A stretch of 64,000 nt of DNA from an uncultured Acidobacteriota bacterium (lineage in GTDB: Bacteria > Acidobacteriota > Thermoanaerobaculia > Thermoanaerobaculales > Sulfomarinibacteraceae), in the NCBI GenBank assembly GCA_963823445.1, contig CAWGLT010000023.1, positions 151,018 through 215,017 on the forward strand, in the 5' to 3' direction. The notes under the pieces were generated by a model. The model ran no database searches and was not told the DNA's origin. It saw only the letters and a list, made by a program, of their open reading frames with translations. Shown here piece by piece: positions 2,134-54,162 of the stretch; positions within the stretch are counted from its first letter, which is position 1; every line of letters starts with the position of its first letter. Both the position numbers and the translations under genes were made by a program.

Positions 2134-3189
2134 CTACTCCAACGGAATCTCGTGGCGCCAGCCGAACGGGTCATCGCCGATCCCGGTCTGGATGCCGACC
2201 AACGCGTCGTAGAGTTGCTGCCACCGTTCGTCGAACTCGAAGGTCCACTCACGATCGCCGTCCGCGATTCGGGAGATCCACGAAATCACTGCAGCGGTCC
2301 CGCAACATGCCGCGGACTCCAACTCGCCGAGTTCGTCGAGGGCGATCTTTCGTTTTTCGACGGTCCAGCCAAAGGACTTCGAGGCAATCTCGAGAATCGA
2401 GAGTCGAGTGACCGATGGGAGAACGCTCACCGAATCGGGTGTGATGAGCTTGCCGTCACGAAATCCGAGAAAATTGGCGGCGCCGATCTCTTCGATGTAT
2501 CGATGTTCACGGGGATCGAGGTAGAGGGCCTCGCTGAATCCGAGTTCCTTCGCTTCCTGCCCCGGCGTGAAAGAGCAGGCGTAGTTCCCGCCGGCCTTGA
2601 CGTGTCCGGAACCTTGAGGTGCTGCGCGGTCGAGGCGGCTGACCATGAACTCCTTGCCCTGATCGGGTCCGAATCCACCCTTGAAGTACGGGCCGACCGG
2701 CGTGACGAACACTCGGAAGACATACGATCGCGCCGGCTTGACCCCGACGTTGTCGCCGATCCCGAGATAAAAAGGTCGAACATAGAGGGCCGCGCCGCTG
2801 CCGTGCGGTGGGATGTAGGGGTAATTGGCCGCCGCCACCTCCTCGATGCCGCGAACAAACAGATCTTCCGGAACCTCCGGGCCGCAGAGATACCTGGCGC
2901 CGGAATTGAGCCGACGAGCGTTTTCGAGGGGACGGAATGCAAAGATCCGACCGTCCGCGCCGGTGTGGACCTTCATGCCCTCGAAGAGCTGTTGTCCGTA
3001 GTGCAGGCACTGGCTTCCCTCCGGAATGGTCATATCGGAGTCTTCGAGGAGGCCCCGCACCCGCCACACGCCGTGCTGAAACACCGCTTCGAAACGGAAG
3101 GGACACTGGATGTAATCGAAACCCAGGCTGGCAAAATCGAGGTTGGCCTTTTTGCGGTTCCCAGGATAGTAGTACCTCGGCAGGCTCAT
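2134..3189 (-). CDS. ilvE: branched-chain amino acid aminotransferase
   Basis: The conserved region starts at MSLPRYYY (ATG at 3189); the track ORF extends further upstream as GC-rich read-through. Class IV aminotransferase pattern (YGQQLFEGMK, VKAGGNY, GTAAV). Confidence 0.85.
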   Translation of the reverse strand: MSLPRYYYPGNRKKANLDFASLGFDYIQCPFRFEAVFQHGVWRVRGLLEDSDMTIPEGSQCLHYGQQLFEGMKVHTGADGRIFAFRPLENARRLNSGARYLCGPEVPEDLFVRGIEEVAAANYPYIPPHGSGAALYVRPFYLGIGDNVGVKPARSYVFRVFVTPVGPYFKGGFGPDQGKEFMVSRLDRAAPQGSGHVKAGGNYACSFTPGQEAKELGFSEALYLDPREHRYIEEIGAANFLGFRDGKLITPDSVSVLPSVTRLSILEIASKSFGWTVEKRKIALDELGELESAACCGTAAVISWISRIADGDREWTFEFDERWQQLYDALVGIQTGIGDDPFGWRHEIPLE

Positions 3190-3539
3190 GAGCCCCTCCG
3201 TTTCGTTGCTGCGTTCGGTGAGGTCGCTCGGATCCGCGACCGTCGTCTCGAGGGTGCGGATCGACGAAACCCTCGGCAGTATAGCCGGTCCCCGGCCGGC
3301 CGTCATGGGCAGAGCCCGACAATCCTCCCGGTCGTTCGAGGCCCGGTTCGACGAAACCTCGGGCGGCGGTCGACGTAAACTATTGAGATGTCGCCTTGAG
3401 TGATCGGCGTGTCCCCTCAGGAGAGCGGGCCGGCGCCGGCTGTCTTGTTCGAGCCAGGTGTGGGAAGGCGAACTCGGGTGCGCCGGTTGGCATTTTGATT
3501 GCATTTGGTGCGTTGACGACTCGGAGGAAAGGGGACGCC

Positions 3540-4142
3540 ATGTGCTCGTTCGAACTCAAGAGGATCTCGACCATTGGACTCGCAGCGGCGGTTGTCGTCG
3601 TGCTCGTCGGTTGCTCATCCGCGACACCGACCGAAGATCCCGGGATCGATCGCGTCGGAAAATACGTGGTCATGAACAAGGGCTCACAGGCGGAGGTGGC
3701 CGTCGGCTACCGCTACGCCCAGCAGAACCTGGGATCCGAGTGGTTGGTGCTCGAGGTGGCGGCGACATCGCCCCCGAAGCAAACCGCCGTGATGAGACGT
3801 GACAAGGTCTCGGTGCAGACGCCGGCCGGGGAAACCGTTCTCCTCGCGACCCAGCGCGAGTTCAACGAAGCCTATGGCGCCCTCCAATCGGTGCTCCGGG
3901 CTGCCGATGTGGTGCGCGACCCGATGGAGTATTGGCCGCCGCGGAAGAGCACCTGTGCGATCCGGTTCTTTGTCGAGCCGGGGAGTGGAGTCTCGTTCGA
4001 CGAGGTCACGGTCAATGACTTTCGGGCCTGCCAGGGGAGGTTCCTTTTCAATATCCCGGGCGGCGTTCAGGCCGGTCGGTATGTCCTGACCCTGGACCTC
4101 GACAAGAGCGAGATGGAGATCCCGATCACCTTCACGGAGTAG
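3540..4142 (+). CDS. lipoprotein, function unknown
   Basis: ATG at 3540 is preceded by GGAGGAAAGGGG. Signal peptide with lipobox (VVLVGC). Confidence 0.65.
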   Translation: MCSFELKRISTIGLAAAVVVVLVGCSSATPTEDPGIDRVGKYVVMNKGSQAEVAVGYRYAQQNLGSEWLVLEVAATSPPKQTAVMRRDKVSVQTPAGETVLLATQREFNEAYGALQSVLRAADVVRDPMEYWPPRKSTCAIRFFVEPGSGVSFDEVTVNDFRACQGRFLFNIPGGVQAGRYVLTLDLDKSEMEIPITFTE

Positions 4143-4161
4143 CCGGACTCCTACGATTACA

Positions 4162-4189
4162 AAGGGGGCCCCGCTCGGGGCCCCCTTTC
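4162..4189. terminator. bidirectional intrinsic terminator hairpin
   Basis: AAAGGGGGCCCC-GCTC-GGGGCCCCCTTT, a perfect 12-bp stem flanked by A and T runs, between convergent genes. Confidence 0.85.
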
Positions 4190-4208
4190 TTCCGTTCTGA
4201 AAAGCGGC

Positions 4209-5627
4209 TCAGGGGAAGACCCCGAGCTCGCGGTACGACACGGCGATCTTGTCGATGGCGGCGATCATCGAGGCGGTGCGGAGATCGACGCCTTCGCCCT
4301 TTGCCATCTTGATGCCCCGTATCTCATGATAGGCCTCGATCATGGTTTCCTCGAGACCCGAGTTGACGAGATCGATCTCGTCGGGGCCCTTGGCGATCTC
4401 GGCGATTTCGGCGTCGGTGAAGATCCGGTTGGTGGAGTTCTCGATGGCCGACAGGAGCATTCGGCTCGAACTCTCGACAAAGCGCTTTTCCATCCGGCCG
4501 AAGCGCACGTGCTGGAGGTTTTTCAACCACTCGAAATAAGAGACCGTGACACCGCCGGCGTTGATGTACGCGTCGGGGATGATGAGCGTGCCCCGCTCGA
4601 AAAGAAAGTGCGATGCGTCCGAGCTGATGGGACCGTTGGCCGCCTCGGCGATGATCTTGGCCTGGATCCGCGGGGCGTTGTCCATGGTGATGGCGTTTTC
4701 TAAGGCGGCTGGAATCAGGATGTCGCAGTCGATCTCGAGACCGGCGTCGCGGGAGGGAAGAGCCACGGCGCCGGGGAAACCAAGGATCGAACCGGTCGCC
4801 TTGCGATGGGCCATCAAGGACTCGACATCGATCCCGGAAGGGCAAGAGATCGAGCCCTCGTACTCGACGACACCGACGATCACCGCGCCGCCGTCCTCCT
4901 GCATGAACTTGGCGGCGTGATAGCCGACGTTGCCGAGACCCTGAACCACGACCCGTTTCCCCTCGAGACCCGGGGTCAATCCGAGCGCCCGCATGTCGTC
5001 GCCGACGAGGCAGGCTTCGCGGAGGCCGAAATAGACGCCGCGGCCGGTGGCCTCGGTCCGACCCCGGATCCCGCCCTGGCCGACCGGTTTCGCGGTGACG
5101 CAGCCCAGACCGTCGATCTCGTGCGGGTTGAGGGTCATATAGGTGTCGGCGATCCATGCCATCTCACGGCTCGAGGTCGCGAAGTCCGGCGCCGGGACAT
5201 CGAGGCCGGGGCCGATGAAGTTTTTCTTGTTGAGCTCGTAGGTATACCTGCGGGTGATGCGTTCGAGTTCTTTCACCGAGTACTCGTGGGCCGAGATCCT
5301 GACTCCGCCCTTGGCCCCGCCGAACGGGACGTTGACGATCGCGCACTTGTAGGTCATGAGAGCCGACAGCGCCATGACCTCGTCTTCGTTGACGTTGGCG
5401 GCATACCGGATGCCGCCCTTGGTGGGCAACTTGTGTTGGCTGTGTTCCGCACGCCAGGCATGGATGACCTTGAGCGAACCGTCGTCTCGGATGAGTGGGA
5501 AGGTGAAGTGAATGACGCTGTTGACGCTCTTGATCTGCTCGAGCAGTCCGGGCGGGTGGTCGGTCAATGCGGCGGCTCGATCGAAATTCTTGTTGACTTG
5601 ATCGAAAAAACTGAGATCGGCGGTCAT
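4209..5627 (-). CDS. gdh: Glu/Leu/Phe/Val-family (glutamate) dehydrogenase
   Basis: 472 aa starting at MTADLSFF (ATG at 5627, GAGGGGG SD). Motifs [15 protein letters not shown] and GLGNVG. The upstream part of the 599-aa track ORF looks non-coding. Confidence 0.9.
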
Positions 5628-5790
5628 GAGGCACCCCCTCGCAAATGATTTTACTGAAAGGCCGGGAAAGCATACCACCGACATCGCCGGCTCCGTGGCC
5701 TTCAGCCGCAGTTTGCGGATTTCTCCCGCGCTGCAACCATTGGTCGGTTGCGGCCAAGTACTGGAGATGACGGAGAATGAGAGGCTGACG

Positions 5791-6327
5791 ATGAAACGCA
5801 TGATGACGTTGACGATGGTCGTGATCGGACTCGGGATAGCCGGGATCCGCGCAGCGGAGAACGGGGGGCAAGAAATGGGCGAAGTCATTTCCGTGTGGTC
5901 GGTGGAAGAGGGGAAGATGATCTCGACTGCCAGAATCATCAAGAGCGATGACGATTGGCAGCGGGAGCTGTCTCCGGAGGTGTACAAGATCACCCGAAGA
6001 AAGGGCACCGAGATGTCGTGCTCCGGAGCCTACTGGAAGAACGATCGCGAAGGTGTCTACCGCTGCGCCGCCTGTGGGAACGATCTCTTCGTCTCGACCA
6101 CGAAGTACACGTCCGGCACGGGCTGGCCGAGCTTCTTCCAACCGGTCCACGACGCAAACATCGGCAGCGAGCGCGACACCAGTCTGGGCATGGTGCGCGT
6201 CGAGGTTCATTGCGAGCGTTGTGGATCCCACCTCGGCCACGTCTTTCCCGACGGACCGAAACCCACCGGAAAGAGGTATTGCATCAATTCGCTGGCCCTC
6301 GACTTCGTCGAGATGGAAGTCAAGTAA
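5791..6327 (+). CDS. msrB: peptide-methionine (R)-S-oxide reductase with signal peptide
   Basis: Two CxxC pairs ([21 protein letters not shown]) and GWPSF. Signal-like [18 protein letters not shown]. The start could also be ATG 5767. Confidence 0.85.
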
Positions 6328-6330
6328 TTT

Positions 6331-6437
6331 TCAATTATGAATTTTTAATTATGAATTATGAATTGCGGAAGCTCTTCGACACCGTCGTGAGAATCTGCGA
6401 TGGAATTCATAATTCACAATTCATAATTCATAATTGA
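6331..6437. repeat. AT-rich hairpin built from heptad repeats (GAATTAT)n / (ATAATTC)n
   Basis: The 5' arm TCAATTATGAATTTTTAATTATGAATTATGAATTGCG pairs imperfectly with the 3' arm GGAATTCATAATTCACAATTCATAATTCATAATTGA. The loop is ~30 nt of normal GC content. It sits between msrB and the next gene. Confidence 0.85.
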
Positions 6438-6441
6438 TGCC

Positions 6442-7665
6442 ATGCATACCATCAAGTTGAGCTTCGACAACGGTCGCGGGCAACAGCTCTCGGCGATCCT
6501 CGATCGTCCCGTGGACGACCGGCCCATCGCCCATGCGGTTTTCGCCCACTGTTTCACGTGCTCGAAGACCTACAAGGCCGTACGGCACATCTCGCGGGCG
6601 CTGGCGGCCGAAGGATTCGCGGTTCTCAGCTTCGACTTCACGGGTCTCGGAGACAGCGAAGGAGATTTTGCCGACACCTCGTTTTCGTCCAACGTCGATG
6701 ATGTCGTCGCCGCCGCGGAGTTTCTCGCCGGCAGCCATGGTGCGCCGGCGGTGCTCATCGGGCACTCGCTCGGAGGCGCGGCGGTGATGATGGCGGCATC
6801 GCGGATTCCGTCGGCAACGGCGGTTGTGACCATCGCGGCGCCCGCGAGTCTGGGTCATCTGTCCGAGATGCTCGAGCCGGCGCGGCCCGAGGTGAACCGA
6901 ACCGGTTCGGCCGAAATCCTGCTCGCGGGTCGACGGATCCGGATCGGCCAAGCGCTGATGGAAGATCTCGACGAGATCAAGATGGTCGACGCCATCACGG
7001 ATCTCGGTCGCGCCCTCCTCGTGATGCACTCGCCCGTCGACAGGGTCGTGGGGATCGACAATGCGTCGAGGATCTTCCGCGCCGCCAGGCACCCCAAGAG
7101 CTTCGTATCCCTCGACCGGGCCGATCACCTCCTCACCGATGCCGCGGACTCCCGCTACGCGGCCGGGGTCATCGCCAACTGGTCGAAGAAGTACATCTCC
7201 GCAAGTCAGCAGGAGGTCAAGCTGGCGACCTCCGATGACAACCGGGTGGTGGTTCGCACGGGCGCCGGCGGCTTTCGCACCGAGGTGCTCGCCAACGGCC
7301 ACCCCCTCATCGCCGATGAACCGGTCTCGGTGGGCGGCACCAACACGGGGCCGAGCCCGTACGAGCTTCTGACCGCGGCGCTCGGGGCGTGCACGAGCAT
7401 GACTCTCAGGATGTACGCCGATCGCAAGGGTTGGCCGCTCGAAGCGGCAGAGGTCCGACTCGAGCACGCCAAAATTCACTGTGTCGATTGCGCCGAGGCA
7501 TCGCAAGGGCAGCCGAAGATCGACCACATCAGTCGGGAGCTCGTGCTCGAGGGACCCCTCGACGAAGCTCAAAGGCAGCGGCTGCTCGAGATCGCCGATC
7601 GCTGTCCGGTGCACCGCACGCTGCACTCCGAGATCAGGGTCACGACGACACTCGCTGACGAGTGA
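6442..7665 (+). CDS. alpha/beta hydrolase fused to OsmC-family domain
   Basis: 407 aa. N-terminal hydrolase with GHSLGG nucleophile elbow; C-terminal OsmC-like domain (GPSPYELLTAALGACTSMT ... CPVHRTL). Confidence 0.8.
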   Translation: MHTIKLSFDNGRGQQLSAILDRPVDDRPIAHAVFAHCFTCSKTYKAVRHISRALAAEGFAVLSFDFTGLGDSEGDFADTSFSSNVDDVVAAAEFLAGSHGAPAVLIGHSLGGAAVMMAASRIPSATAVVTIAAPASLGHLSEMLEPARPEVNRTGSAEILLAGRRIRIGQALMEDLDEIKMVDAITDLGRALLVMHSPVDRVVGIDNASRIFRAARHPKSFVSLDRADHLLTDAADSRYAAGVIANWSKKYISASQQEVKLATSDDNRVVVRTGAGGFRTEVLANGHPLIADEPVSVGGTNTGPSPYELLTAALGACTSMTLRMYADRKGWPLEAAEVRLEHAKIHCVDCAEASQGQPKIDHISRELVLEGPLDEAQRQRLLEIADRCPVHRTLHSEIRVTTTLADE

Positions 7666-7673
7666 ACGCAGCT

Positions 7674-7763
7674 CAGAATTCTCAATTCTTAATTGCATCG
7701 CAAAGTGTTATTGGGACTCTGCGATGCAATTAAAAATTAAAAATCAGGAATTGAGAATTCTCG
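7674..7763. repeat. AT-rich heptad hairpin (AATTCNN)n, terminator-like
   Basis: CAGAATTCTCAATTCTTAATTGCATCGCA ... TGCGATGCAATTAAAAATTAAAAATCAGGAATTGAGAATTCTCG, between convergent genes. Confidence 0.8.
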
Positions 7764-7777
7764 CGTCGTCGGTCCCC

Positions 7778-8848
7778 TCAGGGGCCCGGCCCGGCGGCTG
7801 GGGCGGAGCCCCCGAGGAGGTTCTCCACCTTGGCGGTGGCGGTGAGGGTTTCGAGGAGTTTCCCCATCTGCGCAGTCGCCTTCTCAGTCTTGAGAAGGTC
7901 CTCGATCTGGGGTGCGGCGATCTCGAGGCTGATGGTCTCGGCCGGGCGACGATCGTTGATCGTGAGAACGTGAAATCCGAACCGCGATTGGACGACCTCG
8001 GAAATGTCTCCGGGCTCGAGCGAGAAGATCGTCTCCGACAACGGGCTGACGAGGGCGCCGCGGGTCACCCAGCCGAGATCGCCTCCACTCGGGGCCGACG
8101 GGCCTTCGGAAAGGTCTCGCGCCACGGCGGTGAAGTCTTCCTTCCCGGTGAGGGCGCGTTGCCGGGCGGCCTCGGCCTTCGCGCGGGTGGTCGCGAGGAC
8201 CGCGGGGTCGGCATCCTCGCCGACGATGAAGATCATGTGGAACGCGTGGGCGCGATCCTCGGCTTCGAAGGCCTCCGGATTGTCCTTGTAGAAGGCGGCG
8301 ATCTCCTCTTCGGTGATGGTGATGTTGGGCTTGATCTGCTTCTCGACAAAGGCGCTGAGAATTTCGAACTCCCGGATGATGTCGAGGAACTGTTCGTAGT
8401 TCGATCCGGCGGCCTTGAGCTTGGTTTCCAGCGCCGGGCGGCCACCTGCCTGCTGCTCGGCGAGTTGCGCGGATCGCGCAACCTCGAGCTCATCCGCCTT
8501 GACGCCAAAACGGCCCGCCTCTTGGACGAGGAGCTTCTGCTCGACGGCACGTTGCGTCGCAACCTTGGCGAGCTCGCGCTGGTCGACCTCCTCCCCGCGT
8601 TCCCTGAGCTGCGCCTGGAGGGTCTGCATGACCATGCTGATCTCAACCGCATAGATGGGATCTCCGTTGACCCGAAGAACCACCGGGTTCGGGGCGGTCT
8701 GGGCCGCTGCGGGGGCGGGGGCGGCCATGGGGTCCTGCTGGGTGGCGACACCCTGGTTCTGCTCGGCGCCGGCCGGTTGCTGGCCGAACGAGGGAGCGGC
8801 GCTCGAGATAAGACACACAATGGTCAGAATCGTCAAGGTCGTTCGCAT
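7778..8848 (-). CDS. SurA/PrsA-like parvulin peptidyl-prolyl isomerase
   Basis: Start at MRTTLTIL (ATG at 8848) with a signal peptide. PpiC-type domain (HAFHMIFI ... GGDLGWV ... GFHVL). Confidence 0.75.
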   Translation of the reverse strand: MRTTLTILTIVCLISSAAPSFGQQPAGAEQNQGVATQQDPMAAPAPAAAQTAPNPVVLRVNGDPIYAVEISMVMQTLQAQLRERGEEVDQRELAKVATQRAVEQKLLVQEAGRFGVKADELEVARSAQLAEQQAGGRPALETKLKAAGSNYEQFLDIIREFEILSAFVEKQIKPNITITEEEIAAFYKDNPEAFEAEDRAHAFHMIFIVGEDADPAVLATTRAKAEAARQRALTGKEDFTAVARDLSEGPSAPSGGDLGWVTRGALVSPLSETIFSLEPGDISEVVQSRFGFHVLTINDRRPAETISLEIAAPQIEDLLKTEKATAQMGKLLETLTATAKVENLLGGSAPAAGPGP

Positions 8849-8970
8849 GGAGTCACTTCCGTTTCCGCGCGGCGGCCAAAGTGCCGAGCGCAATGGCCAT
8901 AGCCTAACATCAACCCGCCGGCTCGGAGTTCAAGGTATTGTAAAAAACGCACTTCTCCCCGGCGTCGGTC

Positions 8971-9714
8971 TCAGGGGGCGGTGACGACCGCGAGATAGGA
9001 CCCGCGCTCGCCCTCGGCGGCGATCTCGACCGCGAGTCCGGCGGCGCCGGCGATGATCTCCAAGGTCTCCGGGTCGACGAAGAGCCACGGATAGCGCGGG
9101 CCTGCGAGGTTCCCGTAGCGGAGAGAAAACTCGACCTCGCCGAGATACGAATCGGGTCGCAGGAGATCGTCGAGGGTTTCGGGTGACTCGACGCCGAGCA
9201 CGGCGGCGAGATCGGCGGAATCGCAGACCAGCCGCCCTCCCGGGTTGAGAACCTTGGGGAGCTCCTCGAAGAGGCGACCGAGACCGTGGAGGTCGCCGAC
9301 GACGCCGAGGCCGTGCATGAGCATCAGCACGGTGTCGAATCGCTCGCCGACGACGAGGCTCAGATCGCCCTGGCGAGCATCCGCGACGCCGCGGTCCCTC
9401 ATGATCTCGACCGCCTCGGGCAAGAGATCGACGGCGACGACGTCGTGCCCGGCCCTCTCGAGCTCGATGGCGTGGCGGCCGGCGCCCGCGCCGAGATCGA
9501 GGACCCGGCCGCGGCAAAGCTCGAGAGCCTCGATTTCGAGCGCGGGAAGCGCCTCTTCGACCGGTCGGTAGTAGGCCGCCACCGGGGTCGGTTCATCCTC
9601 CCAGAGATCGCTCGTCACGACGATCTCGACCGCCGACTCACCGCGGTGAAAATCGAGCAGAGCCGCTCCCAGGGGGCGCCACCCGGCCGCGCGGTCGTCG
9701 ACGGAATCGTTCAC
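8971..9714 (-). CDS. class I SAM-dependent methyltransferase
   Basis: Motif I VLDLGAGAGRHAIELERAGHDVVAVD. Begins 2 nt downstream of the stop of the preceding gene on the minus strand. Confidence 0.75.
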   Translation of the reverse strand: MNDSVDDRAAGWRPLGAALLDFHRGESAVEIVVTSDLWEDEPTPVAAYYRPVEEALPALEIEALELCRGRVLDLGAGAGRHAIELERAGHDVVAVDLLPEAVEIMRDRGVADARQGDLSLVVGERFDTVLMLMHGLGVVGDLHGLGRLFEELPKVLNPGGRLVCDSADLAAVLGVESPETLDDLLRPDSYLGEVEFSLRYGNLAGPRYPWLFVDPETLEIIAGAAGLAVEIAAEGERGSYLAVVTAP

Positions 9715-9715
9715 C

Positions 9716-11512
9716 TCAGGAGCCCGTCGCAGGCAGGGCTGGATGCATGACGCGATAGATCGGCAGAAGACCGACCTGCTCGTCCCAGTGCGGGGTCCGC
9801 CGGTACCACCAGTCGTAACGCGCGCGCCCGTCGGCGGCGAAATCGGGATTCTCGAGCGCCGACTCCCACTCCGCCCTGGTGGCGTCGTCGGCGAGCATCT
9901 CGACCGCCAGCTCCTCGAGCTTGTCGAGCCCGATATAGGTCTTTTGCTCGAAGACCGAGTCGAGCGCGCCCCAGCGCAGCAGCGAATCCGGCGCCTCGGG
10001 TTCGAAGAGCTGGACCGCGACGGCGAAGTCCGGCTGGTCGGCCGGGATCCACAGGCTGCCCGCGGGGATCCGGCGGGTCTCCGTCTGCCGGGTGGTGACG
10101 AAATCCCTGACCATCACCGTGCCCTGGAAGGGAGCCTCGGCGAAGACCGGTGCGGCGACCCGGATGGTCTCGACCTCGAGCTCGACGGGCGCGGACAGGC
10201 GCTGCGTCACCAGGTGGTGCGCTTCGACCACCTCGACGAGCTGCGGCCAACCCGCGTGGACGAGATAGCCGCGCGGGCGCGCGAGCTCGAGTTCGGGCGC
10301 CGCAACGTGCCGGAAGGAGATCTCGGCCGGGACGATCTCGTCGCGGTGGTAGACAGTGCGCGGTCCGCCGGTGACCACCGAGGTCTCGGTGGTGGTGCGG
10401 TAGGACGGCCAGGTGAACTCGTCGTCGCTGTCGACGCCGCGCCACCGCACGATCACGGTCGACGGATCGGCGTCCGGTCCTGCCGAGAGCGCGGGTCCTC
10501 GCTTCCGCCGCCTGCGACCGCCGCAACGAGCGTCGACCCGGACCGGCCGGTCTCGACGATGAGGGCGTCCATGAAGTCGCGGTTGGCGAGCACCCGATCC
10601 CGGTACGGCTTGTGCGCGTGCATCTCGATGAGGATCGACGGCCGATTGATGAGCGGGAAGAACCCGGTCGAGTAGCGCGGCAGCTGGATGTCCGACCAGT
10701 CGACCCCGCTCGTCGGGTCGTCCCAGTCGACGAACGCGAGGTAGGGGCCGTTGGGGTGGCCGGCGGCGGCGGTGGCGTCGAGCACCCGCGGCAGGTGCGC
10801 AGCGACCCAGGCGTCGACCGCGGGGTCGAGTCGAGGTGCCTCGGCGACCATCCAGGTCAGAACCCAGGCGTGGTCGGAGCCGTTGGTGACGTGGTTGTCG
10901 ACGTGGAGGTGCGGCCGCCAGTCGGCGACGAGCTGCGCGAGCGCCCGCGCCTCGGGGCTCGCGAGCCGGAGGAAGTCGCGGTTGAGGTTGAGCCCGGCGG
11001 TGGTGGCGCGAAAGCCCATGCCCTCGACCGGGCCGTTCTGGTTGGGCCGGTTGTACGGCGAGACCCGCTCGTGGCCGTCGAGGTTGAAGATCGGCACGAA
11101 GAGCGTCACCGCCGCCTCGGCGAGATCCGGGCCGTCGGCCCAGGGCGATCTCGCGCAAAAGCATGAGGGTGGCGTCCTTGCCGTCGATCTCGCCGGCGTG
11201 GATGCCGCTTTGCAACAGCAGGATCGGCTTGCCGGCGGCGCGGGCAGCGGCCGGGGTGAAGGCTCCGTCGGACGAGACGATGACGAGGGGCAGCTCGCGG
11301 CCCTCGGCGGTTTCGCCGAAGCTCGTGACGCGGATGGTCTTCGGAGCGCGCGACTCGACGCGGCGGAGGAAGTCCATGGTCTCGGCAACGGTCGATGTGG
11401 CGCGGAAGTCGGTCTTCTCCGCCACCGTCTGCCAGACCTCGGGGACGTCCTCGGCGGTTGCGGGGCAGGGGAGGAGCAAGACAAGGCCGGCGAAGAGGGA
11501 AAGTCGTTTCAT
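9716..11512 (-). pseudogene. M14-family zinc carboxypeptidase, coding sense split over two reading frames
   Basis: The signal peptide, HxxE (SGIHAGEIDG) and the C-terminal third read in the frame of ORF 9716..11608. The central ~650 nt (TLFVPIFNLDGHER, NLNRDF, LHVDNH, ILIEMH) reads only in the frame of ORF 10453..11484. Frame switches are near 11140-11160 and 10485-10510. Confidence 0.55.
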
Positions 11513-11800: not shown

Positions 11801-11907
11801 CTACCGCTGCCCCGGCCGCTGTCAGTGACGCTGTCCCGGCCGCTGTCGCTGTTCCCGGTTCTCACGGCTCCGGCCTTCCGGTCCGCCTTCGGCGGCCCGG
11901 CGTCGCC

Positions 11908-12126: not shown

Positions 12127-12236
12127 AGTCTCGGTTCGGGTCCCGGGTGCGGTCGCTGGTTGCTGCCGCTGTCCCTGCTTGCTGTCGCTGATCGCTGCCA
12201 CTGATTGCCGCCGCCGCTCTGTGGTGGCCGCGGAAC

Positions 12237-19391: not shown

Positions 19392-19458
19392 GGGAATCGC
19401 TCGATTGACATCCCCTCGGCACCGGCCGACGCGTTCCCTGTCGATGCCCCTGCCGCTG

Positions 19459-19600
19459 CCCCCGACAGGCTGGAAGCCTGTCGCTACACAGCGGCCGTTC
19501 TTGATTGTGTAGCGACAGCCATCCTGGCTGTCGTCGGTGACGTGCCCGAACGCGGTCCCCTGCCGCTGCCGCTGCCGCTGACGCTGCGGCTGCCGCTGCC
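19459..19600 (+). repeat. REPIN-like triple-hairpin element with (GCTGCC)n tail, copy A2
   Basis: Hairpins at 19464-19482, 19483-19513 and 19514-19532. Nearly identical to A1 and A3. Confidence 0.9.
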
Positions 19601-19603
19601 GTC

Positions 19604-19659
19604 GGTCGCTGCCCCGGTCGCGCGGTCGCTGCCCCGGTCGCTGCCCCGGTCGCTGCCCC
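19604..19659 (+). repeat. 12-mer microsatellite (GGTCGCTGCCCC)n
   Basis: Four full units and one truncated unit between A2 and A3. Confidence 0.9.
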
Positions 19660-19797
19660 CGACAGGCTGGAAGCCTGTCGCTACACAGCGGCCGTTCTTG
19701 ATTGTGTAGCGACAGCCATCCTGGCTGTCGTCGGTGACGTGCCCGAACGCGGTACCCTGCCGCTGCCGCTGCTGCTGACGCTGCGGCTGCCGCTGCC
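19656..19797 (+). repeat. REPIN-like triple-hairpin element with (GCTGCC)n tail, copy A3
   Basis: Starts 197 bp after A2. Hairpins at 19661-19679 and 19711-19729 flank the central GCTACACA/TGTGTAGC hairpin. Confidence 0.9.
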
Positions 19798-19867
19798 CCT
19801 GCTTGCGCGCTGAATCGGAAACGGGTTCGGAGGCAATTGCGGGCGAGGTGGGCTACAGTACGGTGCC

Positions 19868-22177: not shown

Positions 22178-22249
22178 GCCGACCGGACCCGTGCGGGTTG
22201 ATCCGGCGGAATCGCTCATCCCGGGTGGCGATGGACAGCACCCCCTCGC

Positions 22250-22405
22250 TTGCGTAGACTCGAGAGGACCGAATATGGGGAAGACGGTGCGAATCCGTCG
22301 CGGACCCGCCGCTGTGACCGGGGACGATGACCGGCAGAACCACTGCAATCGGTGATTGTGGGAAGGGCCGGTAGGTAGGACGATCCGGGAGCCAGAAGAC
22401 CCGCA
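22250..22405 (+). promoter_or_regulatory. cobalamin (B12) riboswitch
   Basis: GGGGAAGACGGTGCGAATCCGTCGCGGACCCGCCGCTGTGACCGGGGACGA ... CAGAACCACTG ... GGGAAGG ... GGGAGCCAGAAGACCCGC matches the conserved core and B12 box as I remember them. It lies directly upstream of a BtuF-like binding-protein gene. Confidence 0.8.
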
Positions 22406-22440
22406 GTTCGGCTTTGACGACCCTCGTGGATTGGGGTTTG

Positions 22441-23403
22441 ATGCTCAGATATCCAGGATGGAATACGGCATCCCGGAGGCCTCGAGGCTTCCGGTTTTTG
22501 TGTGTTGGAGCGATCTTGGACATTCGCCTTATTGCCTGGGTTCTCGCCATTGCCGTTCTGGTTGTCGCAACCTCGGCGTGTGGCGGGCATGGCGAACCCG
22601 CGACGGTGGATGTGCCGCGGCGGATCGTGGCCATGGCTCCGAGCCTCACGGAAACTCTCCTCGCCCTCGATCTCGGAGACCGGGTCGTCGGCGTGACCCG
22701 GTACTGCCCGAAGGTCGCCGGTGCGGTCAACGTGGGCGGCTACTTCGATCCGAGCTACGAGACCATCCTCTCGCTCGATCCCGATCTCGTGATCGTCATG
22801 CAGTCGCACGACGAGCTGCACCGGCGGCTCGGCGATCTCGGTCTCGACACCCTGAGGGTCGATCAGCACGACGTCGAGGGAATTCTGGTTTCGGTGGAAG
22901 CCATCGCGACGCGGTGTGGCGTCGAACGGCGCGGCCGCGACCTGGTTCTTGGCCTTCGGCAGGCGCTCGACAAGGTCGCGATGGCCGTCGCGGGGCTGCC
23001 TCGGCCGCGGGTGCTGGTCGTCGTCGGTCGCGAACCCGGAGGCGGCCGGATCGGCACCTTGTGGGCCGCCGCGGACGACACCTTCTACGATGACGTGATC
23101 GGTCTGTCCGGTGGCCTCAACGCGATTTCAAGCAGCGTGATCCGCTATCCCGAGTTGTCCCGCGAAGGGCTCATCGCGGTGGATCCCGATGTGATTCTCG
23201 ATGTCGTGGCCGATGGCGGGGTGCGGGGGGTCAGCGTGGACGCGGCCGCCGCAGACTGGCTGGAGCTCGAAGATCTGCGGGCGGTGCAGGACCACCGGGT
23301 CCACGTCCTGATGCAGGACTTCGTGGTGGTCCCCGGGCCGCGGATCGTCGACACGGTTCGAGCCTTTGCCGAGCGTCTTCATCCGGAGCTCCGATGGGAG
23401 TGA
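22441..23403 (+). CDS. ABC transporter periplasmic binding protein (BtuF / cluster A type)
   Basis: Signal/lipobox (VVATSACGG), RIVAMAPSLTETLLAL and GVTRYC motifs. The start is uncertain (TTG 22414, ATG 22441, TTG 22498). Confidence 0.75.
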   Translation: MLRYPGWNTASRRPRGFRFLCVGAILDIRLIAWVLAIAVLVVATSACGGHGEPATVDVPRRIVAMAPSLTETLLALDLGDRVVGVTRYCPKVAGAVNVGGYFDPSYETILSLDPDLVIVMQSHDELHRRLGDLGLDTLRVDQHDVEGILVSVEAIATRCGVERRGRDLVLGLRQALDKVAMAVAGLPRPRVLVVVGREPGGGRIGTLWAAADDTFYDDVIGLSGGLNAISSSVIRYPELSREGLIAVDPDVILDVVADGGVRGVSVDAAAADWLELEDLRAVQDHRVHVLMQDFVVVPGPRIVDTVRAFAERLHPELRWE

Positions 23404-26886: not shown

Positions 26887-27113
26887 ATGAGGACAGCATC
26901 AGGGGCAGCATCAGCGACAGCGTCAGGAATCACCGACAGCGACAGCGGCGGCGGCAGTCTTCAGGGGCAGCGACAGTGGCAGCAATCAGGGACAGCGTCA
27001 GGAACCAACGGCAAAACGTGCGCGATCGGACGTTTCCCTTGACGCGGATCGCAGCATCAACACTCCTGGTTGTTCTTGATGAGACGGGAATCTGCGCCTC
27101 TGCGTTGAAACCG

Positions 27114-39851: not shown

Positions 39852-40070
39852 CCCTCGGGGCTTCCAGGATCCGTGCCCGGGTCCGCGTCCGATTCCGTTT
39901 CCGTTCCCGATCCCGATCCCGGTCCCGAATAGCAGCGTCCGGGGCAGTGGCAGCGGCAGCGCCAGGGGCAGCGACCGGGGCAGCGGCAGGAACAGCGGCG
40001 GCGTCAGCCTCCGCGTTTCTTTCCGTGCCCGTATCCGCTTCCGTGACAGATCCGAGCCGATCTGCGATGG

Positions 40071-40838
40071 ATTGTGGGGGCGGGCTTCCAGCCTGCCCGT
40101 CAGGGTTGTTGAAGCCGGCCGTGCGTTCCCGAGAGAGTGCGGGGTATTGGGTCTTGTGGGATCTCGGGTTCCTGTCCTCCTCCCCGGCCTTCTGGGCCGC
40201 CGTGACGCTCTGGCGTCCCGGCGACCCAGCGTCGCACCATCGGCGTGGTCGCGGTTTTCTTTCAGGTTGGGCGGACATTGTGGGGGCGGGCTTCCAGCCT
40301 GCCCGTCAGGGTTGTTGAAGCCGGCCGTGCGTTGCCGAGAGAGTGCGGGGTATTGGGTCTTGTGGGATCTCGGGTTCCTGCCCTCGTCCCCGGCCTTCTG
40401 GGCCGCCGTGACGCTGTTGCGTCCCGGTGTCCCAGCGTCGCACCATCGGCGTGGTCGCGGTTTTCTTTCAGGTTGGGCGGTCATTGTGGGGGCGGGCTTC
40501 CAGCCTGCCCGTCAGGGTTGTTGAAGCCGGCCGGGCGTTGCCGAGAGAGTGCGGGGTATTGGGTCTTGCGGGATCTCGGGTTCCTGCCCTCGTCCCCGGC
40601 CTTCTGGGCCGCCGTGACGCAGTGCGTCCCGGCGACCCAGCGTCGCGCCATCGGCGCAGTCGCGGTTTTCTTTCAGGTTGGGCGGACATTGTGGGGGCGG
40701 GCTTCCAGCCTGCCCGTCAGGGTTGTTGAAGCCGGCCGTGCGTTGCCGAGAGAGTGCGGGGTATTGGGTCTTGCGGGATCTCGGGTTCCTGCCCTCCTCC
40801 CCGGCCTTCTGGGCCGCCTCCGGCGACCCAGCGTCGCA
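40071..40838 (+). repeat. tandem array of four ~206-bp structured non-coding units
   Basis: Units start with ATTGTGGGGG at 40071, 40277, 40483 and 40688 (periods 206, 206, 205). Copies 1-3 are ~95% identical by eye. Copy 4 lacks one internal hairpin and merges into element B3. Confidence 0.9.
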
Positions 40839-41053
40839 CCATCGGCGCGGTCGCGCGTGGGAGGCGGGGAGGGCTGCGACCACGCCGATGGCGCGCCGGC
40901 GGCCTGCCTCGCAGCCGGGAGAGCAGACCGCATCGCGCCTCCCGGGGGAGCCCGGTATGACATTGTGCGGGGAGCGCCGCGAAGCCTGGAGGTCGATCCG
41001 GCACAATGTCAAACCCGGCACCCCGATGGGGCGGGGTATTCCGCGGGTCCTGG
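40839..41053 (+). repeat. composite structured repeat B, copy B3
   Basis: Hairpins CCATCGGCGCGGTCGC/GCGACCACGCCGATGG (40839-40891) and TGACATTGTGC/GCACAATGTCA (40958-41011), with tail AAACCCGGCACCCCGATGGGGCGGGGTATTCCGCGGGTCCTGG. Confidence 0.85.
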
Positions 41054-41170
41054 TCGGGCGCTGTCGCTGTCGCTGATTCCTGCCGCTGTCCTGCCGCTGT
41101 TCCTGCCGCTGTCCCGGCCGCTGCATGCTGCCCCTGCCGCTGTCCCGGATACGGTTGTATCCTCGCGGTC

Positions 41171-49030: not shown

Positions 49031-49681
49031 TCAGCCCTCGAGACTCCCGAGAACGGCCCGTTTGACTTCATCCTCGACATCGAGGGCGAAGACCTGATGG
49101 TCTTCCGCCATGAGATCGACCGCGAGGTTCCCGACCGGCCGGCTCACCGGGTGGACGGCCGCGGCGATGAGCTGGGCGCGGTAGATCGCGTCAAAGGCGT
49201 TCCAGCGGTGGATTCCGGGCGTGCGGTCGGACATCAGATCGGCGATCTCCAAGAGACGCCCCCGTTGCCAGTGGTAGAACTGGTGGACCTGCATGCCGTC
49301 CTCGTGGAGCTCGAAGGACATGTGGAGAGGACCGAGAAGGCGGGTCAGCTCGGGCCGCTCGGCCAGGCTGGACGCCACCAGATCGGCCGCCTCCTCGCGA
49401 CTCAAGGCGTCATCCGAGCTTCGCAAATCGGTCTCGAGGGCGTCGTACCACTCCTTCATCCGGGTGAGCATGACGGTCATGAACAGCTCTTCCCGGCTCC
49501 GATAGGCAAGGGTCGCCTGGCCCTGTTTGACGCCCGCCTGTTGGCCGAGGGTGTCGAGGGTGATCTGGGAGTATGGAAATCGGACAAAGGCGCTATCCGC
49601 GGCGTCGAGGATCTTCTTCGCCCGCTCTTGACGGGCCTCGCGCGCGAGACGGGTACGGTTGGGATCGATGAGTCTGCCCAT
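49031..49681 (-). CDS. TetR/AcrR-family transcriptional regulator
   Basis: N-terminal HTH (ILDAADSAFVRFPYSQITLDTLGQQAGVKQGQATLAY). Confidence 0.8.
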   Translation of the reverse strand: MGRLIDPNRTRLAREARQERAKKILDAADSAFVRFPYSQITLDTLGQQAGVKQGQATLAYRSREELFMTVMLTRMKEWYDALETDLRSSDDALSREEAADLVASSLAERPELTRLLGPLHMSFELHEDGMQVHQFYHWQRGRLLEIADLMSDRTPGIHRWNAFDAIYRAQLIAAAVHPVSRPVGNLAVDLMAEDHQVFALDVEDEVKRAVLGSLEG

Positions 49682-49704
49682 GGGTGGGAATGATACTTGA
49701 TCTT

Positions 49705-49809
49705 CGTGAGACGTGAGGGGGTGAGGAAGTGAGGAGGTTCGAAGGCGAGGAGTGGAGTGTGAAGAACCTCCTAACCCCTAACTCCTAACCCCTCACTCTT
49801 CACCTCTCG
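49705..49809. repeat. heptad-periodic imperfect hairpin (GTGAGGN)n / (CCTAACN)n
   Basis: CGTGAGACGTGAGGGGGTGAGGAAGTGAGGAGGTTC ... GAACCTCCTAACCCCTAACTCCTAACCCCTCACTCTTCACCTCTCG. The right arm overlaps the 3' end of the HD-GYP CDS. Confidence 0.75.
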
Positions 49810-51036
49810 ATCCCCGAGCCGATCCCAGATCTCCGCCATGCCGCCGTGGTGGTCGGCGAAGAGCCGCCGGAGATCCGGGTCGAGGTGGCCGTCCGGGTCC
49901 ATCCGATCGTCGCCGTCGAGGATGACCTTGCGCGACTGGTCGTGGCTGAACCCGATCTTGTACGGGCGCGTCGAACGGAGTGCATCGTAGATGTCCGCGA
50001 GGGCGACGATCCGCGCCTCGATGGGGATCTCCTCGCCCCGCCGGCGGTTGGGATACCCGCCGCCGTCCCAGCGCTCGTGGTGGTTGAGGGCGATGGCTGC
50101 CGCCATCTGGAGCCGGTCCGAGGACTCGAGGATCTGATAGCCGAAGACCGGGTGCTGGTTCATTTCGGCCCGTTCGTCGGCGTCGAGTGGTCCCTTCTTG
50201 CGGAGGACCATCCCATCCACGCTCATCTTGCCGACATCGTGGAGTTGAGCGGAGTACCGGATCTCGTCGCAAAAGCTCGCCGGCATCCCGTGCGTCCTCG
50301 CGATGAAGTAGGAGTACTCGTTGACCCGCAGGACATGGGATGCGGTGTCGGTGTCGTGGACCTCGGCCGCGCGGGCGAGGAGGTTGATGGAGAGCTGGAA
50401 CGCCTCTTCGGTTTCCTGGTGCAGGGCGGCGATTTTCTCTCTCTGCTCGGCGAGGATCCTGTTGCGATCGCGAAGCCTGACGTTCTGCGCCTTGATGCGT
50501 CCGAGCATCTCGGCCCGTTCGATGGCGCTGCCGACGATGTGGTTGACCGGGACGATGAGGCCCGCCTGTTCTTCACCGAATGGCAACGGCCGATCGATTT
50601 CGCCGGTTCTCCGGTTGATGAGCTGGACCACGCCGACGACGTTGCGGTCGTAGTTGAGGAGCGGAAAGGAGAGCATGGAACGGCTGTGGTACCCGTGTTT
50701 GAGGTCGAATCGGCGATCAAAGGTGTAGGGGACGCTGCGCGGGAGATCGTAGAGGTCCTCGACGAAAACCGTCTCTCCGGTGGTGGCGGTGAATCCGGCG
50801 ATGGAGGAGGGTGTCATGGGCACGACGAAGGACGCGGGTTTCACGGCGATGACGTCGTTTTGTGAGTCGGCCGCCTCGAGCCGCCGGCTGCGCCCGCGAC
50901 CCCTGACGATGAAGATGGTGCCGGCTTCCGCTCCCGTGAGCTCGCGGCTCTTGAGGAGCACGCGGTGCATGAGCCTTTCCACGGACTCGGGCTTCGACGA
51001 TTCGATGAACTCGAGAAACTCCCTGAGTGCGTCCAT
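49771..51036 (-). CDS. GAF domain - HD-GYP domain protein (c-di-GMP phosphodiesterase type)
   Basis: HDVGK and HHERWDGGGYP motifs, with an N-terminal GAF-like domain. Confidence 0.85.
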   Translation of the reverse strand: MDALREFLEFIESSKPESVERLMHRVLLKSRELTGAEAGTIFIVRGRGRSRRLEAADSQNDVIAVKPASFVVPMTPSSIAGFTATTGETVFVEDLYDLPRSVPYTFDRRFDLKHGYHSRSMLSFPLLNYDRNVVGVVQLINRRTGEIDRPLPFGEEQAGLIVPVNHIVGSAIERAEMLGRIKAQNVRLRDRNRILAEQREKIAALHQETEEAFQLSINLLARAAEVHDTDTASHVLRVNEYSYFIARTHGMPASFCDEIRYSAQLHDVGKMSVDGMVLRKKGPLDADERAEMNQHPVFGYQILESSDRLQMAAAIALNHHERWDGGGYPNRRRGEEIPIEARIVALADIYDALRSTRPYKIGFSHDQSRKVILDGDDRMDPDGHLDPDLRRLFADHHGGMAEIWDRLGDREVKSEGLGVRG

Positions 51037-53915: not shown

Positions 53916-54013
53916 TTCGTGATCTCCCTGCAGGCACGATGGGTGCCGAATGAGTATACGGGGGCTGCGATGCAGGGTTTGACCGAAAACGGGTAGGATG
54001 AGGTGTCAATTTT

Positions 54014-54162
54014 GAATGATGAATTATGAATTATGAATTATGAATTATGAGTTGAGAATTCGGAGTGAGGTGTGAGGAAGTACGTGCTGCGGTAAGGGGT
54101 GCGACACGCCCAACGTCTAACGTCTAACGTCTAACCCCTAACGTCCAACTCCTAACCTCCTG
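54014..54162. repeat. two abutting heptad arrays: (GAATTAT)4 grading into GAGTGAG/GTGTGAG, then (CGTCTAA)3 grading into CCCCTAA/CTCCTAA
   Basis: 7-nt periodicity over about 10 units on the left (54014-54083) and about 7 units on the right (54114-54162), in a divergent promoter region. Confidence 0.8.

Follow-up and report, generated by a model that had tools for sequence, protein, structure and literature searches.

The locus described here lies in a 64,000-nt stretch of contig CAWGLT010000023.1 (assembly GCA_963823445.1), from an uncultured bacterium of the Sulfomarinibacteraceae (Acidobacteriota). The whole stretch is referred to as the window, and positions are counted from its first letter. 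A gene coding for an alpha/beta-hydrolase-OsmC fusion protein is found there between msrB and a convergent gene for a SurA-like peptidyl-prolyl isomerase (PPIase), and each of its two junctions carries a long hairpin with AT-rich arms made of heptamer repeats. A first-pass annotation, made from the nucleotide letters and their open reading frames (ORFs), had already named msrB and the fusion gene, and both assignments agreed with the gene calls and Pfam searches. The fusion protein has 7999 homologues at E <= 1e-40, and the nearest named ones belong to metagenome-assembled genomes of Methylomirabilota (74%), Verrucomicrobiales (64%) and Thermoanaerobaculales/Holophagae (63%).

The two hairpins

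The upstream hairpin occupies the whole spacer between msrB and the hydrolase gene. It pairs 6331-6364 with 6404-6437, two 34-nt arms of 91% complementarity around a centre of 39 nt. Folded as RNA, the structure has a minimum free energy (MFE) of -42.9 kcal/mol (z = -6.4), and none of 200 dinucleotide shuffles was as stable; as single-stranded DNA (ssDNA) it gave z values of -6.7 for the + strand and -6.5 for the - strand. The enclosed core, GCGGAAGCTCTTCGACACCGTCGTGAGAATCTGCGATGG, forms an imperfect stem-loop by itself. The msrB stop codon, TAA (6325-6327), lies inside the first heptad of the element. At the other end the stem is followed by TGCCATG, so that 4 nt separate the hairpin from the hydrolase ATG at 6442. 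The downstream hairpin (about 7675-7761) folds as RNA with an MFE of -46.5 kcal/mol and z = -7.0. It is formed by outer stems at 7675-7694 and 7742-7761 (20 nt, 90% complementary) and an inner stem at 7695-7727, with a 14-nt bulge in the 3' arm that is unpaired relative to the 5' arm. It begins 9 nt past the hydrolase TGA (7663-7665) and is followed by CGCGTCG; the stop codon of the convergent PPIase gene is at 7778-7780. Both hairpins claimed by the first-pass annotation are therefore real by the stability of their folds and the complementarity of their arms.

The A+T content of the arms is 80-88%, against 41-48% in the centres and 35% in the whole window, which bears out the earlier description of AT-rich arms. 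In the 64 kb, 30-nt segments with at least 80% A+T occur only at 6316-6370, 6403-6439, 7723-7761 and 54004-54060. The heptad pattern AATTCNNAATTC, with one mismatch allowed, has 23 matches in the window compared to 1.5 expected by chance, and the program TRF detected period-7 arrays at 6333-6364, 6404-6435 and 7728-7744. The arms that face the gene had also been described as made of co-oriented AATTCNN heptads; this is correct for the window, but the downstream site of relatives shows either heptad polarity. The features of the locus are listed in Table 1.

Table 1. Coordinates of the hairpin elements, the neighbouring genes, the promoter-like sequences and the solitary array at 54 kb
Feature	Position	Strand	Description and evidence
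msrB (SelR domain)	5791-6327	+	Pfam SelR, E = 1e-49
Upstream element, 5' arm	6331-6364	none	(NNGAATT)n heptads, 88% A+T; inverted repeat, TRF period 7
Mirror TTCATA-17-CATAAT, antisense into msrB	6334-6362	-	Promoter scan; consequence of the palindrome
Upstream element, GC-rich core	6365-6403	+	GCGGAAGCTCTTCGACACCGTCGTGAGAATCTGCGATGG; orientation named core-sense
Upstream element, 3' arm	6404-6437	none	AATTCAT AATTCAC AATTCAT AATTCAT AATTGA, 82% A+T
TTCATA-17-CATAAT, candidate leaderless hydrolase promoter	6406-6434	+	Promoter scan; -10 ends 7 nt before ATG 6442
Alpha/beta-hydrolase-OsmC fusion, 407 aa, bracketed gene	6442-7665	+	Pfam Hydrolase_4/Abhydrolase_6 and OsmC
Downstream element, 5' arm	7675-7694	none	GAATTCT CAATTCT TAATT, 80% A+T
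Downstream element, core, degenerate and palindromised	7695-7727	+	GCATCGCA...TCTGCGATGC; family motif TCTGCGATG retained
Downstream element, 3' arm	7728-7761	none	(AATTAAA)2...GGAATTGAGAATTCT, 82% A+T
SurA-like PPIase, convergent with hydrolase	7778-8848	-	Pfam Rotamase and SurA_N
Solitary (AATTCAT)n array, no core, no partner arm	54008-54060	-	Heptad scan, TRF, arm-only nhmmer match

A family of dispersed repeats

The two hairpins are homologous: the downstream core aligns as a direct repeat with 6388-6435 (73% identity over 48 nt), and the aligned segment includes TCTGCGATG. The family to which they belong has a GC-rich core of about 39 nt, with the consensus GCAGCGGCTCCTCGACACCCTCGTGAGCATCTGCGATG, placed between (ATGAATT)n and (AATTCAT)n. 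The downstream copy of the window is degenerate: its core is a shorter, palindromised GCATCGCA...TGCGATGC, and its heptads have become AATTCTC/GAGAATT by drift; the canonical full core is present at the orthologous downstream site of three relatives (loci L122, L138 and L164). A family model built with nhmmer from 23 copies matched the window at 6332-6440 (E = 8e-29) and weakly at 7671-7759 (E = 0.007), and besides the two hairpins its only match in the 64 kb was the arm-like array at 54 kb.

Public metagenome contigs were then scanned for GTGAGNATYTGCGATGNNATT, and 43 stretches were returned, 13 of which had heptad arms. Eight of these 13 are orthologous loci and five lie beside other genes. 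The copy in L134 is located 3' of a small ORF without Pfam match, itself downstream of a SNase-like ORF, that in L136 follows a DUF7544 gene, that in L142 separates an MBL-fold gene from a peptidase M16 gene convergent with it, and those in L153 and L165 are at the 3' end of a dCache-HAMP-GAF-HD (HD-GYP-type) signalling gene. Because the core and its heptads recur at the 3' ends of unrelated genes, the element appears to be a dispersed family comparable to transposable elements of the miniature inverted-repeat type (MITEs) or repetitive extragenic palindromes (REPs). The 64 kb window contains two copies, and at least four unrelated gene contexts were found on other metagenome contigs. In L153 (5211-5400) and L165 (11770-11930), two family hairpins adjoin at the 3' end of the signalling gene and the second core differs (GCGCTGCACCCGACCTACTATCGCAGTCGCAGTTCGGTGCGATG), which indicates clustering and the existence of sub-families.

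Beside other genes, and likewise upstream of the orthologous hydrolase genes, copies start at or over the stop codon, as in TAA followed by TTATGAATT or TGA followed by ATTATGAATT. The copies at the downstream site start about 8-20 nt past the hydrolase or PPIase stop. Copies measure about 87-185 nt and contain no conserved ORF, and the element itself had no Rfam or Pfam match. A known RNA family was considered and discarded: an Rfam search of the window at gathering thresholds produced only a cobalamin riboswitch, and a permissive Rfam search of 6250-7850 returned only sub-threshold microRNA-precursor models, which are generic noise caused by long hairpins. A phage origin was discarded as well, since two scans of viral contigs gave chance matches only.

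Arrays of the same heptad type exist outside the family. A scan for four consecutive AATTCNN heptads, with one genome per species, found at least 120 loci, and the taxa among the matches listed include Cyanobacteria, Bacteroidota, Ignavibacteria, Acidobacteriota, Chloroflexota, Planctomycetota, Verrucomicrobiota, Saccharibacteria and Clostridia. An inverted partner accompanies 21 of the 120 listed arrays (about 1 in 6). The core, with up to nine substitutions allowed, was absent from the 120 listed loci and, because it is unmatched there, it appears to be specific to this lineage.

Orthologous loci with and without hairpins

The syntenic relatives that bear hairpins share 82-95% protein identity with the window and keep the msrB-hydrolase-PPIase gene order. 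Both hairpins were found in L122/L123, L124, L125/L126, L131, L138, L164 and L180. In L147, L157 and L169 the sequence read covers the upstream hairpin, L147 and L169 reaching the contig end, and the family model also matches L157 at 6334-6413. Four relatives, L127, L128, L173 and L172, have no hairpins. Their identities range over 73, 70, 68 and 64% and their G+C content is 67-70%. All four have the hydrolase gene beside the PPIase gene, and msrB lies upstream in L127, L128 and L173, with a GDH gene at that place in L172, where msrB has been lost. In L127, 3 nt separate the msrB stop from the hydrolase ATG and 15 nt separate the convergent stops, and the spacers of L128 and L173 are GC-rich. 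The orthologous sites are then filled in 11 loci and empty in four; the empty sites belong to more distant lineages, and the exact insertion point is not readable in them.

Taking all loci examined, the hydrolase gene is beside the PPIase gene in 15 of 15 and msrB is upstream in 14 of 15. Because the hairpin-less relatives keep the gene context, the hairpins arrived at junctions that were already there, and the gene did not travel with them. On this comparison the gene was present first, and the ancestor of a single clade of uncultured 66%-GC bacteria acquired an element at each of the two junctions. The MsrB proteins of the hairpin-bearing clade are about 10 residues shorter and end at the first TAA that the element contains, which suggests that the insertion supplied the msrB stop.

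Heptamer arrays of other compositions occur at the downstream junction of the hydrolase gene in other lineages. In L172, the region 5224-5428, downstream of the hydrolase gene, contains GC-rich heptads (CCACCGC CCAACGC CCACCGC) and GCTATGA-type repeats. An identical hydrolase (100%) is encoded on the contig ENA ERZ25039603:contig_36089 (L001). Compared with positions 2441-10460 of the window, this contig has 52 mismatches and 14 indels over 8 kb, which split the GDH, aminotransferase IV and peptidase M14 calls, and it seems to represent the same organism in a different assembly. The two versions agree fully in the upstream hairpin, and the downstream 5' arm is about 8 nt (one heptad) longer in L001, which reflects either real variation in the number of units or assembly noise.

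Evolution of the element

At the fourfold-degenerate sites of the hydrolase gene, which are 87% G+C, the identity between the window and its relatives is 0.43-0.67, with a random expectation of 0.38. In the same genomes the cores are 0.82-0.89 identical, in comparisons where the fourfold sites are at 0.43-0.62, and the A+T content of the arms does not fall below 80%. Because the core is so well conserved while the fourfold sites are near saturation, the element is not neutral, and it must be subject either to selection or to a continual process of copying and homogenisation.

The arms change in length by whole heptads, the upstream 5' arm being 26, 33, 40 or 47 nt long across relatives, and in L131 an (AAAACTA)4 expansion is present in one arm alone. 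Five of the 11 upstream copies have a single core and six have a duplicated one. All 17 copies examined fold into long hairpins, and RNAalifold predicted 32 pairs in ten single-core copies, four of them with compensatory changes. The orientation of the core also varies. It is + at the upstream site of eight of the 11 orthologs and - in the other three, which include L180 (95% protein identity, same sample), and the downstream core is inverted in three of the seven copies read. By these counts, inversion of the core between its arms is recurrent. The core-sense strand is the more stable one in 11 of 13 canonical copies, with 20 G-U pairs versus 6 A-C mismatches. This gives no more than a slight indication that one strand acts as RNA or ssDNA, because the copies share ancestry and the core-sense strand was the one from which the structure had been derived. 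Relative to the genes, the difference in stability between sense and antisense RNA had no consistent sign among the folded copies. Extrusion of a cruciform is unlikely with a 39-nt GC-rich spacer, and a DNA cruciform was accordingly disfavoured.

A candidate promoter in the upstream element

Only two sigma-70-like matches were found between positions 5500 and 9000. Both read TTCATA-17-CATAAT, agree with the consensus at 9 of 12 positions with A2 and T6 present, and are located one in each arm of the upstream hairpin, facing outward. The layout is that of a leaderless sigma-70 promoter, for which a spacing of 16-18 bp and a -10 some 6-8 nt ahead of the start codon are expected: the hexamers are 17 bp apart and the CATAAT -10 is 6-7 nt upstream of the ATG in 11 of 11 hairpin-bearing orthologs, including L157, where other heptads have diverged. 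TTC at the -35 position, with the 17-bp spacer, was found in nine of the 10 copies scored. Any array of the form (AATTnnn)n sets the -35 frame TTnnnA at a distance of 23 nt from the -10 frame nnnAAT, a value of 2 mod 7; therefore, with a 7-bp period, the 17-bp spacer between the hexamers follows from the geometry of the array.

The upstream hairpin fills the spacer and, as the first-pass annotation had observed, leaves no room for a conventional Shine-Dalgarno (SD) sequence, and none was found at the hydrolase start in the window or in 10 hairpin-bearing relatives, where the start reads CATAATTGATGNN-ATG. The four hairpin-less relatives have a G-rich SD-like sequence (GAGGAG, GGGGGG or similar) at the same place. 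Taken together, these observations suggest that a leaderless hydrolase mRNA starts at A6442 and is driven by the promoter in the arm. If this is true, the missing SD sequence is explained by the leaderless mRNA.

Similar arrangements were observed at other genes. TAGCAT-6-ATG and TAAGAT-7-GTG are conserved in L122 and L124 at genes without SD sequence. When TANNNT hexamers in the window precede a start codon by 7-9 nt, 8 of 14 cases lead into a long ORF with high G+C at third codon positions, as opposed to 5 of 42 for the other spacers between 0 and 15 nt. These results suggest widespread leaderless transcription in this lineage. Many genes in the window start without an SD sequence and with TANNNT 6-9 nt upstream, for example at 17047, 19868, 42163, 49681, 57579 and 62361, and the gene at 49031-49681 (- strand) has TATCAT 8 nt upstream of its ATG. 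The solitary array at 54 kb contains TTCTCA-17-CATAAT aimed at the divergent gene that starts at 53915 (- strand).

Other repeats in the window

In the spacer that separates the divergent genes with starts at 53915 (-) and 54186 (+), the (GAATTAT)n array at 54008-54060 is accompanied by a (TAACGTC/TAACCCC/TAACTCC)n array at 54112-54157. The two arrays are mutually non-complementary (RNA fold z = -0.1). The second one resembles the TAACTGA-type heptamers upstream of Beggiatoaceae start codons; in these bacteria, start codons with few ribosome-binding sites have TAACTGA arrays just ahead of them (PMC4679880). At 49700-49810, in the interval between two genes that end at 49681 and 49771, (GTGAGGN)n is found opposite (CCTAACN/CCTCACN)n, forming an imperfect hairpin of GC-richer heptads (RNA z = -1.9). 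The region 39889-41123 contains a 206-bp unit repeated 3.6 times with 96% identity (40071-40818), flanked by inverted GC-rich hexamer/12-mer arrays of the GGCAGC type (39932-40008) and of the CGCTGTC/CTGCCG type (41059-41123), and is a second type of structure in this genome with arms made of simple-sequence arrays. At 19436-19802, a 197-bp unit is repeated 1.8 times with 96% identity, each unit having three short hairpins (e.g., gctacacagcggccgttcttgattgtgtagc) and (CTGCCG)n arrays at its flanks. Further 6-mer/12-mer arrays similar to these flanks are located at 11804-11847, 12151-12208 and 26894-27002. The cobalamin riboswitch mentioned above is at 22219-22422 on the + strand (Rfam RF00174, 88.8 bits), and a terminator-like stem with a T-run is present at 22473-22494.

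Discussion

Heptamer repeats have no accepted function, and REP, MITE and Correia elements are usually described with fixed inverted ends. The family found around the hydrolase gene shares traits with these repeats. Correia elements (CREE/NEMIS) carry sigma-70-like outward promoters in their ends, form hairpins that are cut by RNase III and have an invertible centre (PMC10969869). Like these Neisseria elements, which are intergenic palindromes of about 100-200 bp with inverted-repeat ends, the present copies have TTCATA-17-CATAAT arms, 30-bp stems and a core that is flipped in some orthologs (3 of 11). Unlike them, they have no fixed terminal inverted repeat; their arms are heptamer arrays of variable number, with a conserved GC-rich centre. 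Target-site duplication of the TA type was not seen here. With MITEs it shares terminal inverted repeats, small size without coding capacity, and filled and empty sites. REP and REPIN sequences are extragenic, form hairpins in ssDNA or mRNA, are dispersed and show compensatory changes in their stems, and a REPIN consists of two inverted REPs around a variable spacer (PMC3116915). The present elements are also dispersed extragenic hairpins, and four of their 32 predicted pairs are compensatory, but the pattern is reversed: the centre is conserved (0.82-0.89) and the arms vary in the sequence and number of their units. Moreover, REPs are GC-rich palindromes, whereas the arms described here are AT-rich simple-sequence repeats. 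Transcribed into RNA, each copy would consist of an A/U-rich stem of 20-34 bp that encloses a GC-rich stem-loop and is placed at a gene's 3' end, the same architecture found in REP-type mRNA stabilisers and in the Correia hairpins cleaved by RNase III (PMC10969869).

Heptamers are reported to be over-represented in many bacteria (PMC4692102, citing Mrazek 2007), slippage has been proposed as their origin, and some form inverted pairs in convergent spacers (PMC4692102). Heptamers described in the same article are the cyanobacterial short tandemly repeated repetitive (STRR) sequences (three in Calothrix), GGGAATC in Xanthomonas and GGGGA(T/C)T in Nostoc (PMC4692102). The arms studied here resemble such repeats in being made of intergenic 7-bp units whose number varies between relatives, and the window also has the (TAACGTC/TAACCCC)n array. 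They differ in that the unit AATTCAT/ATGAATT matches none of these heptamers nor TAACTGA, in that it is tied to a core, and in that two arrays form one stem. A literature search for the AATTCAT string found only two unrelated eukaryotic papers, and thus no description of a heptamer microsatellite combined with a conserved core. Bidirectional intrinsic terminators consist of an A-tract, a GC stem and a U-tract. The elements are similar to them in the GC-rich central stem, the complementary A/T flanks, the position between convergent genes and a symmetry by which both strands could be acted on. The differences are that no uninterrupted U-tract is found at the GC stem, which is followed by GAUGG and mixed A/U/C heptads, and that the arms are 20-47 nt long.

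The explanation that we favour, with moderate confidence, is that the two hairpins are copies of one small non-coding palindromic family of intergenic repeats, similar to MITE, Correia and REPIN elements, with putative roles in RNA and as a promoter. In the ancestor of the clade, copies of the element took up both junctions of the hydrolase-OsmC gene, which were tight or GC-rich before, and the msrB-proximal copy appears to provide the stop codon of msrB. The arms have gained and lost whole heptads while remaining complementary, and the core has flipped repeatedly. The RNA hairpin at the 3' end of a gene may act as a barrier to exonucleases, as a substrate of RNase III or as a non-canonical bidirectional terminator. 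The upstream copy would uncouple the hydrolase gene from msrB, and its gene-proximal arm is probably the promoter of a leaderless hydrolase mRNA. The presence of copies on both flanks would reflect local spread of the element and mark no mobile unit.

Several observations weigh against this explanation. Regarding mobility, no consistent target-site duplication was seen by eye at six copies (window upstream, L125, L134, L136, L138 and L142), a weak negative because the heptad arrays blur the element boundaries. Neither a transposase nor a RAYT gene was identified: no transposase domain appeared in the Pfam listings of the called genes around the copies of the window and its relatives, nor was a transposase found among eight ORFs next to other copies, with no genome-wide search made. 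Two copies at one gene would be unlikely by chance if the family is sparse, which leaves room for a gene-linked role. Regarding the promoter, the terminal TTCATAATT heptad is conserved at most ends of family copies, including those between convergent genes, and the invariant CATAAT may come from a requirement of the element terminus or of the stem base instead of from a promoter function. The mirror promoter into msrB has no obvious use. Furthermore, AATTCNN arrays among the matches listed show no bias toward the starts of downstream genes (27 of 65 tandem contexts) and are found in 21 convergent versus five divergent spacers. A general promoter role for these arrays was therefore abandoned, there being no orientation bias, and the idea was kept only for the AATTCAT arms of this family. 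Finally, no T-run follows either hairpin, and a terminator scan called neither of them (6331-6437 and 7675-7761). Since no T-run follows the stems, canonical intrinsic termination is not supported.

The absence of T-runs also bears on a terminator role of the hairpins. The first-pass annotation had offered the upstream one as the msrB terminator, and its position fits a structure of the msrB 3' end, as all copies examined start at, over or no more than about 20 nt after stop codons; the missing T-run and the negative scan do not fit a canonical terminator. It had also considered that hairpins found at most junctions would be generic terminators of the genome. Only two junctions in the 64 kb window carry the element, for which reason it is not taken as the general terminator. 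Every copy is at the 3' end of a gene, canonical stem and T-run terminators are not enriched in the window (14, 15 and 16 against about 11 expected per 20 kb from shuffles), and with AT-rich arms the RNA:DNA hybrid would be weak whichever way transcription runs. Nonetheless, four hairpin-less relatives manage without the element at the same junctions, and we regard generic termination as very unlikely. The same note compared the bracketing hairpins with the boundaries of a cassette, a hypothesis in which the palindromes are recombination sites or the ends of a composite element, by which the hydrolase-OsmC gene is moved, deleted or inverted. The flanking elements are in fact homologous in direct and inverted senses, and the upstream and downstream cores of L164 share lineage-specific variants, suggesting sequence exchange between the flanks. 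However, the gene has its PPIase neighbour in all loci and msrB in all but one, with hairpins or without them: it sits beside the PPIase gene in four relatives that lack hairpins, three of them with msrB. None of the 15 loci has the hairpins without the gene, or an inverted gene, and elsewhere the element flanks unrelated genes. In addition, no recombinase or transposase is present in the gene calls of the neighbourhood, and the family is absent from the viral contigs scanned. Mobilisation of the gene as a cassette is highly improbable.

Two other hypotheses were weighed. The hairpins could be regulators specific to the hydrolase gene, the upstream one sequestering its start on a read-through mRNA from msrB. 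A ribosome terminating at the msrB stop would then melt the base of the stem and reinitiate at the ATG, and the downstream hairpin would close the unit. The geometry is suitable: the msrB stop belongs to the 5' arm's first heptad, 4 nt separate the last pair from the ATG, and this arrangement is kept in 11 of 11 orthologs. Stop and start are at the two ends of the same stem and spatially close, as in the TAG-ttc-ATG of L127, whose ancestral-like 3-nt spacing is typical of translational coupling. The absence of an SD sequence at the hydrolase start and the presence of the element on both flanks across the clade are also in line with such regulation. It is unlikely all the same: the element is found at unrelated 3' ends, in at least two cases (L134 and L142, both convergent) without a downstream co-oriented gene, the orientation of the core varies at the locus, a stem of -43 kcal/mol located 4 nt from the start would strongly inhibit initiation when msrB is not translated, and nothing indicates that msrB and the hydrolase gene are co-transcribed. 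The hairpins could instead be functionless by-products, microsatellites generated by slippage and shaped by templated quasi-palindrome correction, that are neutral or slightly selfish. The over-representation of heptamers in bacteria, possibly due to slippage (PMC4692102), the at least 120 loci with four AATTCNN heptads in many phyla, the arm lengths that step by 7 and the expansion of a single arm would be accounted for in this way, and the palindromised downstream core of the window (GCATCGCA...TGCGATGC) is as expected of template switching. Against it, the arms stay at or above 80% A+T and the cores 0.82-0.89 identical next to near-saturated fourfold sites of 87% G+C, and near-identical cores at unrelated loci require a copying mechanism, which makes a purely passive origin improbable.

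A stronger version of the repeat-family explanation is that the element is a mobile module that delivers a promoter together with a hairpin, with a 17-bp spacer that is slippage-proof and a core recognised by a recombinase or an ssDNA transposase. This is doubtful at present. If it is true, the insertion turned a translationally coupled hydrolase gene into one that is independently transcribed and leaderless, the same hairpin ends or processes the upstream msrB transcript, and the promoter spacing survives the addition or removal of any number of heptads. Should the promoter step fail, what is left is a selfish or structural repeat of the ordinary kind, with local interest only. The locus joins two kinds of sequences, heptamer microsatellites and small palindromic repeats, in an element with a conserved core and a stem built of a heptamer array, which is held AT-rich in a genome with 87% G+C at neutral sites and has clear filled and empty orthologous sites. 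It is thus a testable case of an insertion that would rewire an operon, of arms that keep their complementarity despite slippage, and of the inversion of a loop that may act as a switch.

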